Below are positions 14,505-18,340 of a stretch of 64,000 bases of DNA, in pieces (the stretch's first letter is position 1; each line of letters opens with the position of its first letter). The translations under genes and the position numbers were made by a program. The notes below the pieces were generated by a model. It saw nothing but the letters and a program-made list of their open reading frames with translations, ran no database searches and was not told the DNA's origin. The DNA is taken from assembly GCF_002854065.1 (NCBI RefSeq), contig NZ_CP024147.1; one strand, given 5' to 3'. Origin of the DNA: Escherichia coli. Lineage in GTDB: Bacteria > Pseudomonadota > Gammaproteobacteria > Enterobacterales > Enterobacteriaceae.

Positions 14505-14915
<411 letters not shown>

Positions 14916-14917
14916 TG

Positions 14918-15781
14918 TCACAAATACAGCGCCGGAAATATCAACCGGCCCACCCCGCGCACCTTTAATGCATCAGCCAACGGCTCAACGTCTTCCGGCG
15001 TGGCGCTCGCCCAGCTTTGCGCCTCGCCATACACGCCGTGGGCATGAAACGCGTTCAGGCGTACCGGAACATCGCCAAGTCCCTTGATAAACGCCGCCAG
15101 TTCTTCGATGTGTTGCAAATAATCCACCTGGCCAGGGATTACCAGCAAACGCAGTTCCGCCAGCTTGCCGCGCTCTGCCAGCAAACAGATGCTGCGCTTA
15201 ATCTGCTGATTATCGCGTCCGGTTAATTGTTGATGACATTCGCTACCCCATGCTTTGAGATCGAGCATTGCGCCGTCACACACCGGGAGTAATTTTTCCC
15301 AGCCGGTTTCGCTCAACATGCCGTTACTGTCCACCAGACAGGTGAGATGGCGCAGTTGCGGATCGTTTTTGATAGCAGTAAACAGCGCCACTACAAACGG
15401 CAGTTGGGTCGTGGCTTCGCCGCCGCTTACCGTTATCCCTTCAATAAACAGCACCGCTTTGCGGACATGGCTAAGCACTTCGTCCACGCTCATGGATTGC
15501 GCCATCGGCGTGGCATGTTGCGGACACCTCTTCAGGCAGGTATCACACTGCTCGCAGACCGCAGCGTTCCACACCACTTTGCCGTCAACAATCTGCAACG
15601 CCTGATGCGGACACTGTGGCACGCACTCTCCGCAATGATTACAGCGCCCCATCGTCCACGGATTGTGACAGTTTTTGCAGCGCAGATTGCAGCCCTGCAA
15701 AAACAGAGCCAGACGACTGCCTGGCCCGTCAACGCAGGAGAAGGGGATAATCTTACTGACTAAAGCGCATCTGCTGTTCAT
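14918..15781 (-). CDS. yjjW: Glycyl-radical enzyme activating protein (radical SAM) YjjW
   Basis: 287 aa; CxxxCxxC and extra ferredoxin-like Cys clusters; overlaps yjjI. Confidence 0.88.
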
Positions 15782-17303
15782 GGCTTATCACGCGCGGCTG
15801 GCGTTCCAGAATACGAGTGTTGCGTGCGGCTTCTTCGCCCAGCCAGGTGGTGTTGGTGCGTGAACCTTCGGCGCGATATTTTTCTAAATCCGACAAACGC
15901 ACCATATAACCGGTAACGCGAACCAGATCGTTACCGCTGACATTGGCGGTAAATTCACGCATTCCGGCTTTAAAGGCACCGAGGCAAAGCTGTACCAGCG
16001 CCTGCGGATTACGTTTGATGGTTTCGTCGAGCGTCAGAATGTCGCTGATGCCGGAATAATAATAAGCATGATGCGGGGCGACAGTTTGCAGATGGGTGAT
16101 CGGATCTGGCTCATCGCCATAGGGTAAACGCGCGCCCGGCGTGGTGCCGATATCGGAACTGATCCCCGACTGTGCGTGTAACATGGCGCGTTTTTGCCAT
16201 CCATATTTCACGGGGGTATTGGCGACAAACTCCGCCAGTTGCGCGCTGATGCGATAACCCACTTCATTTGCGGCGGCTTCTTTACCGTAACGTGCGGCAA
16301 TCCCTTCTTTCTCACACAGCAAGTTAACCGCTTCCGCCAGCCCATACATGCCAAACATTGGCACAAAACGTTCAGGGTTAATCAGCCCTTCTTTCACCAG
16401 GAAGCTATTCTCAAAGAAGTGTGATTGTTGATAGAGGAATTCACACCGCGCATCGATGATGGCGATCTGCTGCTGGCAATAGTGCGGTAGAGTGCGCGTA
16501 AAGAAGTCATCCAGCGATTCGCTGCGCTCGGCAATGGCTTTCAGGTTAAGGCGTACCAGCGTGCTGCCACCACCCGCCAGCGGCAGTGAGTTGTAACAGC
16601 TCACAATCCCGTAGCCCCCTTTTGTGAAAATTTTATCATGCACCGGACCGTTGGCGATGTGCGGTTTGCTACATTCACAGATGTTCTTCGCCACTTCCAG
16701 CAGCAGGTCATCAGGGGTGATTTCAGGATCGTAGATAAAGGTCAGGTTCGGTGAAACCTGCTTCAACTCTGCGTCTGCACGTAAGATCGCGCGGGTAATG
16801 GGCGAATCAGACGGGCCGATATTGGCGTGCATAAAGGCGTCTGGCAGGGTTCTGTCGAGGTAACGCCAGAAACGTTTTATTCGAACATCGATCTCGTCTT
16901 GTGTTAGAATTCTAACATACGGTTGCAACAACGCATCCAGTTGCCCCAGGTAGACCGGCATCGATGTGACCGACGGTACGTGGTGGTAAAGAATGGTCAG
17001 CAGAGAGAGTGCGTCATCAAGATCTTTCGCGCCTTCCAGCTCCAGCCATTCGGAACCGTTCGCCAGAAAACGGGCGTAATCGGGTAAGACATAGCGCGGT
17101 TTGTACGGCGCATGACCTTCAAACATATCGCAGATTACACCCTCATCCAGCGCGCGGCGGGCTTCGGCAGGAAGCTGCGGATAAGGCAGATTGTTTTCTG
17201 CTTCCAGAGCCAGAAAATGGCGCTTCTGCTCCGGGCTAAGCACTGGGCTGGTGACAATTTGCTGGCAACGTTGTTGCAGTGCATTTTCATGAGAAGTGGG
17301 CAT
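15753..17303 (-). CDS. yjjI: Glycine-radical-enzyme-like protein YjjI
   Basis: 516 aa; synteny with its activase yjjW. Confidence 0.88.
16902..16917 (+). promoter_or_regulatory. DeoR operator (deo O1 region), inside yjjI coding sequence
   Basis: Exact palindrome tgttagaattctaaca; 599 bp upstream of the second copy, matching the known O1-O2 spacing. Confidence 0.75.
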
Positions 17304-17500
17304 CTTCTTTTCCTTTTATGCCGAAGGTGATGCGCCATTGTAAGAAGTTTCGTGATGTTCACTTTGATCCTGATGCGTTTGCCACCACTGACGCATTCAT
17401 TTGAAAGTGAATTATTTGAACCAGATCGCATTACAGTGATGCAAACTTGTAAGTAGATTTCCTTAATTGTGATGTATATCGAAGTGTGTTGCGGAGTAGA

Positions 17501-17516
17501 TGTTAGAATACTAACA
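17501..17516 (+). promoter_or_regulatory. DeoR operator (deo O2, P2 region)
   Basis: tgttagaatactaaca, 45 bp upstream of deoC start. Confidence 0.75.
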
Positions 17517-17560
17517 AACTCGCAAGGTGAATTTTATTGGCAACAAGCCAGGAGAATGAA

Positions 17561-18340
17561 ATGACTGATCTGAAAGCAAGCAGCCTGCGTGCACTGAAAT
17601 TGATGGACCTGACCACCCTGAATGACGACGACACCGACGAGAAAGTAATTGCTCTGTGTCATCAGGCCAAAACTCCGGTCGGCAATACCGCCGCTATCTG
17701 TATCTATCCTCGCTTTATCCCGATTGCTCGCAAAACGCTGAAAGAGCAGGGCACCCCGGAAATCCGAATCGCTACGGTAACCAACTTCCCACACGGTAAC
17801 GATGACATCGAAATCGCGCTGGCAGAAACCCGTGCGGCAATCGCCTACGGTGCTGATGAAGTTGACGTTGTGTTCCCGTACCGCGCGCTGATGGCGGGTA
17901 ACGAGCAGGTTGGTTTTGACCTGGTGAAAGCCTGTAAAGAGGCTTGCGCGGCAGCGAATGTACTGCTGAAAGTGATCATCGAAACCGGCGAACTGAAAGA
18001 CGAAGCGCTGATCCGTAAAGCGTCTGAAATCTCCATCAAAGCGGGTGCGGACTTCATCAAAACCTCTACCGGTAAAGTGGCTGTGAACGCGACGCCGGAA
18101 AGCGCGCGCATCATGATGGAAGTGATCCGTGATATGGGCGTAGAAAAAACCGTTGGTTTCAAACCAGCGGGCGGCGTGCGTACTGCGGAAGATGCGCAGA
18201 AATATCTCGCCATCGCAGATGAACTGTTCGGTGCTGACTGGGCAGATGCGCGTCACTACCGCTTTGGTGCTTCCAGCCTGCTGGCAAGCCTGTTGAAAGC
18301 GCTGGGCCACGGTGACGGTAAGAGCGCCAGCAGCTACTAA
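17561..18340 (+). CDS. deoC: Deoxyribose-phosphate aldolase
   Basis: 259 aa from [29 protein letters not shown]. Confidence 0.95.

Follow-up and report, generated by a model that had tools for sequence, protein, structure and literature searches.

The deo control region embedded in the divergent yjjI gene of Escherichia coli: comparative evidence for selection on operator DNA

The interval studied here is very probably the classical Escherichia coli deoCABD control region laid over the divergent anaerobic yjjI-yjjW operon, and comparison across species indicates that, at the two operators lying within yjjI, purifying selection acts on the operator DNA itself (positions below refer to the window, the whole stretch of 64,000 nucleotides of contig NZ_CP024147.1 that was analysed). 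The operator arrangement is already known, being the classical deo control region viewed from the neighbouring gene; because the deo operators, spaced 599 and 279 bp apart, rank among the founding cases of repression through DNA loops, the finding as originally stated adds nothing to the looping story. The comparative constraint across Enterobacteriaceae and Hafniaceae is a modest new detail, and we know of no publication that analyses O1, OE and deoP1 as antisense passengers constraining yjjI codons. The region offers a natural case in which regulatory DNA prevails over the protein code of an adjacent gene, two operators fixing five to six codons each, rare ones among them, in 76 species.

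Results

Three genes frame the interval. The radical-SAM activase gene yjjW (14918-15781, minus strand, 287 aa; TIGR04041, 398 bits against a cutoff of 250; Pfam Radical_SAM and Fer4) and yjjI (15753-17303, minus strand, 516 aa; TIGR04040, 787 bits; PF11230), which encodes a YjjI-family glycyl radical enzyme, overlap by 29 nt (15753-15781) at the end of yjjI and the start of yjjW. On the opposite strand follows deoC (17561-18340, plus strand; TIGR00126, 295 bits; RefSeq annotation), the first gene of deoCABD. Of 5426 complete E. coli genomes, 5422 carry the same RefSeq annotation of the three genes.

An earlier note on this DNA had described two exact or near-exact DeoR operator palindromes 599 bp apart and a weaker candidate further upstream, and all three were recovered: O1 (TGTTAGAATTCTAACA, 16902-16917), O2 (TGTTAGAATACTAACA, 17501-17516, 599 bp from O1 start to start) and tgtgaaaattttatca at 16623-16638, 279 bp upstream of O1. 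We call the last OE, which in name, role and 279-bp position we take to be the third DeoR operator of deo. O1 is a perfect 16-bp palindrome; against the palindrome TGTTAGAA/TTCTAACA, O1 matches at 16/16 positions, O2 at 15/16 and OE at 12/16. The pattern TGTTAGAAWWCTAACA has no further exact match anywhere in the 64 kb and, because arithmetic predicts only ~1e-4 exact matches in a stretch of this length, the O1/O2 pair is far beyond chance. OE (TGTGAAAATTTTATCA) is not above chance by sequence alone, as nine sites in the window match at least as well as its 12/16, versus 6.3 +/- 2.2 in shuffles; the case for it as an operator comes from the position published for OE and from cross-species conservation. 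The sequences of O1, O2 and OE are identical in K-12, and this identity, together with the 599-bp spacing (PMC3334521) and the published looping (PMC4217526), supports the palindromes as the DeoR operators of deoCABD.

The position of these elements relative to yjjI differs from site to site. O1 occupies nt 387-402 of the 1551-nt coding sequence (codons 129-134, taT GTT AGA ATT CTA ACA) and OE nt 666-681 (codons 222-227, caT GAT AAA ATT TTC ACA), and O2 is intergenic: within the 257 bp that separate yjjI from deoC, it falls 198-213 bp upstream of the ATG of yjjI. The earlier placement of deo control elements over the 5' third of yjjI on the opposite strand is therefore correct for O1 but not for OE, which lies in the middle third, nor for O2. 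O1 covers the deoP1 -10 hexamer (TAGAAT, 16905-16910, plus strand) and O2 that of deoP2 (TAGAAT, 17504-17509, plus strand). The deoP1 start was placed near 16917 by the hexamer and by the 599-bp register with deoP2, whose start would lie near 17516 (16917 + 599 = 17516). A sigma-70/terminator consensus scan of 16500-17650 called neither deoP1 nor deoP2 nor the yjjI promoter described below; its single match, on the minus strand at 16657-16630 and overlapping OE, was rejected as being at the chance rate (1.3 expected). When the presumed deoP1 leader was folded as RNA over its first 143 nt, the result was unremarkable (z = -1.78).

Upstream of deoP2, two conserved blocks in the spacer alignment correspond to CRP sites on the plus strand, one distal (TTTGAACCAGATCGCA, 17415-17430) and one proximal (TGTGATGTATATCGAA, 17468-17483), the latter about -40.5 from the predicted deoP2 start. 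Their centres are 53 bp apart, matching the tandem-CRP/CytR layout of deoP2. The 16-mer of the proximal site equals a CRP ChIP-seq site reported in the yjjI/deoC spacer of ETEC. An intragenic CRP motif reported in ETEC (16966-16981) was not taken as conserved, its differences being ordinary third-position variation.

We then consider how these elements behave across species. Outside Proteus, 76 species loci were compared, spanning Escherichia to Hafnia and Edwardsiella; deoC is the divergent neighbour of yjjI in 74, and the remaining two are truncated upstream of yjjI. In all 76, O1 stands at nt 387 of the coding sequence; it is exact in 54 and carries one or two changes in the remainder, and the OE 16-mer is identical in 64 and has one change in the other 12. 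O2 is recognisable in the deoC-adjacent species and is more variable than O1, with degenerate variants such as TGTTACAATAGTCACA (Yokenella, Kluyvera) and an O1-O2 spacing of 568 to 612 bp. Among 511 six-codon windows of yjjI (77 sequences), O1 ranks first for synonymous constraint, a level reached by 0 of 2000 permutations, and OE ranks second (4/2000, p = 0.002), while the codons flanking both vary freely. Rare yjjI codons are kept at these places, AGA and CTA in the operators and CGA and ATA in a further block at 16864-16881.

Could these invariant stretches instead reflect a constraint of yjjI itself, through its protein, codon usage or mRNA structure, with the likeness to operators incidental, at least at OE? 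That OE matches the palindrome at only 12/16 positions, the chance rate in the window, would speak for this reading, but several observations make it extremely improbable. The constraint falls on synonymous positions and retains rare codons; the encoded residues lie, for both O1 and OE, in variable, indel-prone loops of the family-wide YjjI alignment that differ freely from member to member; beyond the O1-bearing clade conservation of the stretches ends, no sampled YjjI orthologue there having O1 or OE; and the spacings equal published operator spacings (599 bp in PMC3334521; 279 bp for OE). Selection on the operator DNA is the better reading, and on it deo regulation, rather than YjjI function, would fix the codons at O1 and OE, the operators dictating the loop residues V-R-I-L-T (O1) and D-K-I-F-T (OE). 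The operators appear to be tolerated in YjjI because they are seated in variable loops.

The embedded sites are restricted to one clade. O1 and OE are absent from yjjI loci without adjacent deoC in Proteus, Moellerella, Providencia and one further locus (L085), and they are absent from the outgroup locus L088 despite its adjacent deoCAB, where only an O2-like site is present. The sites may have been gained in the Enterobacteriaceae/Hafniaceae ancestor or lost in L088, a polarity that rests only on a gene tree.

The third constrained stretch within yjjI (CGCCAGAAACGTTTTATT, 16864-16881) lies at about -53 to -36 of deoP1 on its plus strand. Its 16-nt window 16864-16879 has the second-lowest entropy in yjjI, with CGA kept in 64 and ATA in 74 of 77 sequences; the synonymous-only score (-3.33) does not reach significance by itself. 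The block is possibly an upstream promoter element or the site of another factor; ModE, which reportedly controls deo according to one paper, was considered here.

The spacer also holds a predicted promoter of yjjI. A -10 hexamer (TACAAT, 17337-17342, minus strand) is conserved as a block in the spacer alignment of 75 species and predicts a start at ~17330, and an FNR-type site (cgCATcaggATCAA, 17364-17377, minus strand) is centred about -41 from that start. Within this site TTGATCC (17364-17370) is invariant in the alignment, and only the ATCAA half is conserved, the other half being weak; GGATCAA, 21 nt and then TACAAT or TACACT recur in all species shown. The benchmark for class II FNR promoters is a TTGAT-N4-ATCAA site whose centre lies near -41.5 relative to a mapped start, and the yjjI start used here is a predicted one. 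A published FNR ChIP peak assigned to yjjI (4,615,181 in U00096.2) maps to ~17396 of the window, about 26 bp from the FNR-type site, and yjjI is described as FNR-activated and anaerobically induced, the published regulators being FNR and anaerobiosis. Together, these observations point to a conserved FNR-type promoter belonging to yjjI itself, which would drive yjjI-yjjW. Since it is predicted to lie within the O1-O2 loop and to face deoP1, the two transcripts would overlap by ~410 nt.

The earlier description of YjjI and YjjW as an enzyme-activase pair with an uncharacterised substrate agrees with our results: NCBIfam holds YjjI as a hypothetical equivalog, no functional paper was found in the literature searched, and a sequence search matched YjjI to no PDB chain and to no NrdD model. 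The glycyl-radical motif of YjjI reads R462-V-T-G465-Y (RVxG[FWY]). Across 22 family members, with identities as low as 33%, R462 and G465 do not vary, and C236 is the sole invariant cysteine of the alignment. As read from its translation, YjjW carries a CX3CX2C motif (C31, C35, C38) and two ferredoxin-like cysteine clusters. An activase follows yjjI in each of 11 further contexts whose sequence continues beyond the gene; at L094, only a partial unannotated ORF follows. The AlphaFold model of YjjI (pLDDT 90.6, pTM 0.90) has 93 PDB structural matches at E <= 0.001, and every one of the 50 listed is a glycyl radical enzyme (NrdD, PFL, PflD, glycerol and propanediol dehydratases, HypD, BSS and CutC). 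Motifs and modelled fold thus argue for a genuine glycyl-radical enzyme and activase pair.

YjjI shares with glycyl radical enzymes, and with NrdD among them, the RVxGY motif, the invariant cysteine loop, the adjacent radical-SAM activase and the barrel fold, and NrdD structures are the best matches of the model among those listed (E about 1e-17, TM 0.65-0.75). However, YjjI is only 14-15% identical to NrdD in sequence, it is the shorter protein at 516 aa, and its sequence, as read, lacks the ATP-cone and the C-terminal Cys4 zinc site of NrdD. YjjI was accordingly rejected as a class III ribonucleotide reductase: NCBIfam and Pfam return YjjI-family matches only, the C-terminal cysteine cluster is missing, and the likeness is one of fold only.

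Discussion

Our data suggest a model whereby two tandem deo promoters, deoP1 (~16917) and deoP2 (~17516), would each have their -10 under a 16-bp DeoR palindrome. According to the literature, the DeoR-repressed deoP1 and deoP2, 599 bp apart, are locked by DeoR looping (PMC3334521), and hexameric or octameric DeoR forms single and double loops on the natural operators, with natural looping up to ~900 bp (PMC4217526). With binding and looping taken from those reports, multimeric DeoR would bridge O1, O2 and OE through single or double loops and shut both promoters, deoxyribose-5-phosphate would release DeoR, and CRP and CytR would add control at deoP2. The control region reaches ~880 bp upstream of deoP2 and the spacer measures only 257 bp, which accounts for the location of deoP1, O1 and OE inside the yjjI frame on the opposite strand.

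Does this arrangement also control yjjI? One reading is that the control is integrated and runs both ways, so that regulation of yjjI-yjjW would be part of the reason why the embedded elements persist. This could happen in three ways: RNA polymerase coming from the yjjI promoter could be stopped by DeoR bound to O1 and OE, that promoter could be caught in the O1-O2 loop, or, after DeoR release, deoP1 transcription could both collide with yjjI transcription and be antisense to it over the first ~410 nt of the yjjI RNA; YjjI expression would then hinge on deoxyribose-5-phosphate plus FNR. The geometry would suit such control, with the predicted yjjI start (~17330, minus strand) between O1 and O2 and facing deoP1 (~16917, plus strand), and the divergent yjjI-deoC pairing persists across 76 species. 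In addition, in Moellerella and at L087 a gene for a NupC-family nucleoside transporter immediately precedes yjjI in the same orientation, and one also flanks yjjW at L088; the YjjI fold, closest to NrdD among the matches listed, would fit as well. Nevertheless, we regard two-way control as unlikely, because deo regulation alone fully explains the operator conservation, L088 has adjacent deoCAB yet no embedded sites, and yjjI-yjjW occurs with no nearby nucleoside genes in Proteus, Providencia and six distant lineages. For the last reason, a family-wide link between YjjI and nucleoside genes was rejected, the six distant contexts showing none. Our literature search found no paper linking DeoR or looping to yjjI expression, so that no published expression data tie the two, and it returned no DeoR ChIP-exo data. 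Any DeoR effect on yjjI would be a side-effect of deo control.

Few glycyl radical enzymes of E. coli remain uncharacterised, YjjI-YjjW among them, and the region yields weak leads to its substrate, namely a promoter within the DeoR loop, nucleoside-gene neighbours in several Enterobacterales and a fold nearest that of NrdD. We speculate, as a long shot, that deoP1, O1 and OE arose through point changes in two permissive yjjI loops in the Enterobacteriaceae-Hafniaceae ancestor, and that DeoR occupancy or deoP1 antisense transcription gates FNR-driven yjjI-yjjW. If this were true, an NrdD-like orphan enzyme would be tied to anaerobic processing of a nucleoside- or pentose-phosphate-derived substrate.

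The closest known system is the E. coli deoCABD control region itself, with deoP1/O1, deoP2/O2, OE and CRP-CytR at deoP2: the element found here is the same system and shows no differences. Its total operator span of 878 bp fits the natural looping of up to 900 bp described in PMC4217526. Distal looping operators that coexist with the code of a reading frame have further parallels in E. coli.

Similarly to O1 and OE, the lac O2 operator lies within lacZ and the gal OI operator within galE, and both act as intragenic looping operators. In lac and gal, however, the operator sits in a same-strand gene of the operon that it regulates, whereas in deo a whole promoter and two operators lie in an opposite-strand, FNR-regulated neighbour.

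Results

The yjjV / yjjW / yjjI / deoC annotation over this 3.2-kb stretch is present in 5422/5426 complete E. coli genomes, and the stretch is collinear with K-12 MG1655 (window position + 4,599,762 = NC_000913.3), with 46 substitutions across 2,683 bp. yjjW (14918-15781, 287 aa) and yjjI (15753-17303, 516 aa) are minus-strand ORFs, and the plus-strand deoC ORF (17561-18340) is divergent from them across a 257-bp spacer. Relative to K-12, yjjW carries 29 substitutions in 864 bp, nine of them within 15557-15647, and the rest of yjjI is sparser, with 15 in about 1520 bp; the denser substitutions in yjjW (14918-15781) than in 15782-17303 may mark a recombination tract. The yjjV-yjjW gap is occupied by a tandem array (14520-14906; 101-bp unit, 3.8 copies, 95% matches) whose unit is made of REP-like palindromes, GCCGGATAAGGCGTT...GCATCCGGC; at the equivalent place in L088, an Enterobacterales contig, a nupC-family gene stands between yjjW and a TatD (yjjV-like) gene. 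One database protein, P0004 (574 aa), combines YjjI-like and DeoC Pfam domains and covers 91% of the YjjI query at 100% identity; because yjjI and deoC are divergent in the window, its 2.9-kb contig probably carries a misassembly or a local inversion.

Two strong palindromes, O1 (16902-16917, TGTTAGAATTCTAACA) and the intergenic O2 (17501-17516, TGTTAGAATACTAACA), lie exactly 599 bp apart, and a third, weaker site (16623-16638, tgtgaaaattttatca) lies 279 bp upstream of O1 and 878 bp from O2; the earlier note was accurate in these sequences, positions and spacings, having put the weaker site at about 280 bp. The designation OE, for an operator at this distance from O1, reportedly goes back to Valentin-Hansen et al. 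(1986) and Dandanell et al. (1987). In the 64 kb, TGTTAGAAWWCTAACA is matched exactly only at O1 and O2, where arithmetic predicts about 1e-4 matches. OE matches the palindrome at 12/16, a grade reached nine times in the window versus 6.3 +/- 2.2 times in shuffles, and this shuffle-like rate means that its match proves nothing by sequence alone. K-12 has all three sequences unchanged, and deoP1 and deoP2 are published as 599 bp apart and locked together via DeoR-mediated looping (PMC3334521), both of which uphold the proposal that the palindromes are DeoR operators; we assign O1, O2 and OE to the deoCABD operon. This looping acts "up to 900 bp naturally", and DeoR, a hexamer or octamer, forms single and double loops on the natural operators (PMC4217526).

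TAGAAT occurs inside each strong operator (16905-16910 in O1 and 17504-17509 in O2), and the proximal CRP site of deoP2 (17468-17483, TGTGATGTATATCGAA) lies 53 bp, centre to centre, from a distal site (17415-17430, TTTGAACCAGATCGCA). From TAGAAT and the proximal CRP site we place the putative deoP2 start near 17516, and the 599-bp register would put that of deoP1 near 16917. Reportedly, deo is also under ModE control. Inside yjjI, at about -53 to -36 of deoP1, lies a third strongly conserved block (16864-16881, CGCCAGAAACGTTTTATT) that contains the palindrome AAACGTTT and rare codons (CGA in 64/77 sequences, ATA in 74/77); it could be a deoP1 upstream element or the site of another factor. The proximal 16-mer, TGTGATGTATATCGAA, is the CRP ChIP site reported in the ETEC yjjI/deoC spacer; a second peak in an ETEC CRP ChIP-seq study, 544 bp away from that at deoP2, would fall at about deoP1/O1 (window ~16906-16981). 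The motif assigned to this second peak (TGTGACCGACGGTACG, 16966-16981) is weak and its third codon positions are not conserved; the signal could reflect crosslinking through the DeoR O1-O2 loop and not direct CRP binding.

With a spacer this short (257 bp), two-thirds of the deo control region, its upstream part, falls within yjjI on the other strand. O1 occupies nt 387-402 of the yjjI CDS (codons 129-134, taT GTT AGA ATT CTA ACA, Y-V-R-I-L-T), OE occupies nt 666-681 (codons 222-227, caT GAT AAA ATT TTC ACA, H-D-K-I-F-T) and O2 precedes the yjjI start codon by 198-213 bp; an overlap with the 5' third of yjjI, as claimed in the earlier note, thus holds for O1 but not for OE or the intergenic O2. 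In the family alignment (22 members, down to 33% identity), both embedded segments fall in variable, indel-prone loops that adjoin conserved blocks, the OE loop directly preceding the invariant S235-C236 motif.

One genome per species was scanned, giving 80 yjjI loci from Escherichia (99% amino acid identity) to Proteus (71%), and deoC was the divergent neighbour in all loci with upstream sequence except those of four Proteus species. O1 was present at nt 387 with 0-2 changes in 76/76 non-Proteus species (exact in 54/76) and was not found in yjjI of the four Proteus species; the OE 16-mer was identical in 64/76 species and differed by one base in the remainder. The operator codons, including the rare AGA and CTA, are fixed, and flanking codons vary at both the synonymous and the amino acid level. 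Scored as synonymous codon entropy loss in 6-codon windows against the gene-wide mean per amino acid, O1 (-6.42) and OE (-4.68) ranked first and second of 511 windows, being reached by 0/2000 and 4/2000 column permutations, respectively. O2 varies more than O1 across species (e.g. TGTGAGTATTCTAACA and TGTTACAATAGTCACA). Depending on the species, O1 and O2 are between 568 and 612 bp apart, and one E. coli strain has 598 bp, so 599 itself is not conserved, and OE-O1 is constant at 279 bp because the coding sequence there is free of indels.

Orthologues outside the operator clade show other residues and free codon choice at the operator segments, as in Proteus (V-G-[E/N/S]-L-T at O1 and D-A-V-F-G at OE), Moellerella, Providencia and the loci L085 and L087. 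The most informative outgroup is L088 (70% identity), in which a 404-bp spacer separates yjjI from a divergent deoC-deoA-deoB, yet O1 and OE are absent from yjjI (codons GTC GGC GCA CTG AGC and CAG CAG GCG TTT GAT); the only such elements in its spacer are TGTTGAAATAGTCACA, which resembles O2, and two CRP-like palindromes. In a neighbour-joining tree of YjjI, the operator-bearing E. coli, Hafnia and Edwardsiella form one clade, with L088 outside. On the simplest reading, deoP1, O1 and OE arose as a derived trait of Enterobacteriaceae plus Hafniaceae, written into the reading frame of a neighbour; loss of all three in L088, where deoCAB does adjoin yjjI, is a possible alternative. The gene order in Proteus is serB <> smp-yjjI-yjjW, which we take to be the E. 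coli order minus deoCABD-yjjJ-lplA.

Besides the deoP2 elements, an alignment of the spacer from 75 species contains two conserved blocks, TTGATCC (17364-17370) and ATTGTA (17337-17342). Read on the yjjI strand, these give GGATCAA, 21 nt, TACAAT or TACACT, about 27 nt and ATG, with an AGGA ribosome-binding site, a predicted FNR class II promoter layout in which the FNR-type site would be centred at about -41 relative to a start near 17330. An FNR ChIP-seq peak assigned to yjjI at 4,615,181 in U00096.2 maps to window ~17396, and that study describes yjjI as directly FNR-activated, "TSS not known". In E. coli, yjjI and yjjW both appear among listed FNR-activated genes, and in Yersinia intermedia their anaerobic induction was 4.3-fold and 2.1-fold, respectively. 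With its predicted start near 17330, the yjjI promoter would therefore lie inside the O1-O2 loop, facing deoP1, with an overlap of about 410 nt between its transcript and that of deoP1.

YjjI matches TIGR04040 and PF11230, with R462-V-T-G465-Y and C236, the sole invariant cysteine, conserved throughout the 22 aligned members; the family is small (541 clusters at 50% identity). YjjW carries CX3CX2C and two ferredoxin-like clusters, and the first 29 nt of its gene are shared with the end of yjjI. In 11/11 further contexts that extend past yjjI an activase gene comes after it, and at locus L094 a cut, unannotated ORF alone follows. These features agree with the earlier description of an enzyme and activase pair, and the literature searched contained no substrate assignment for YjjI, as that description had stated; co-expression with nar genes led one study to suggest a function in nitrogen metabolism. 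No sequence relatives of YjjI were found in the PDB. Its AlphaFold model (pLDDT 90.6, pTM 0.90) is a glycyl-radical-enzyme barrel whose best structural matches are class III ribonucleotide reductases (E about 1e-17, TM 0.65-0.75, 14-15% identity), with PFL-type enzymes behind. Membership of the NrdD family was rejected, since YjjI lacks both a sequence-level match and a second invariant Cys; neither a zinc site nor an ATP-cone was seen on reading the sequence. In Moellerella wisconsensis (L089) and the related L087, a NupC-family transporter gene precedes yjjI by 70-80 bp in the same orientation, and another adjoins yjjW in L088 (L089 3647-4921; L087 2681-3931; L088 6427-7704); no nucleoside genes were found near yjjI-yjjW in six distant lineages. 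The nupC neighbours in Enterobacterales and the NrdD-like fold offer a weak lead towards a nucleoside-related substrate.

Discussion

Given the geometry of the locus, it is physically plausible that yjjI is subject to a roadblock, to promoter trapping or to transcriptional interference, and the earlier note proposed that DeoR looping may affect yjjI expression. However, deo regulation alone wholly accounts for the conservation of the operators; the literature found to mention yjjI contained no connection to DeoR, a literature search found no DeoR ChIP-exo data, and we consider such coupling unlikely. The new comparative content is that O1 and OE freeze yjjI codons, that both sit in permissive loops and that they occur in one clade only, to which the placing of a predicted FNR promoter within that DeoR loop would be added. 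The deo operator arrangement itself is a system already known since the 1980s.
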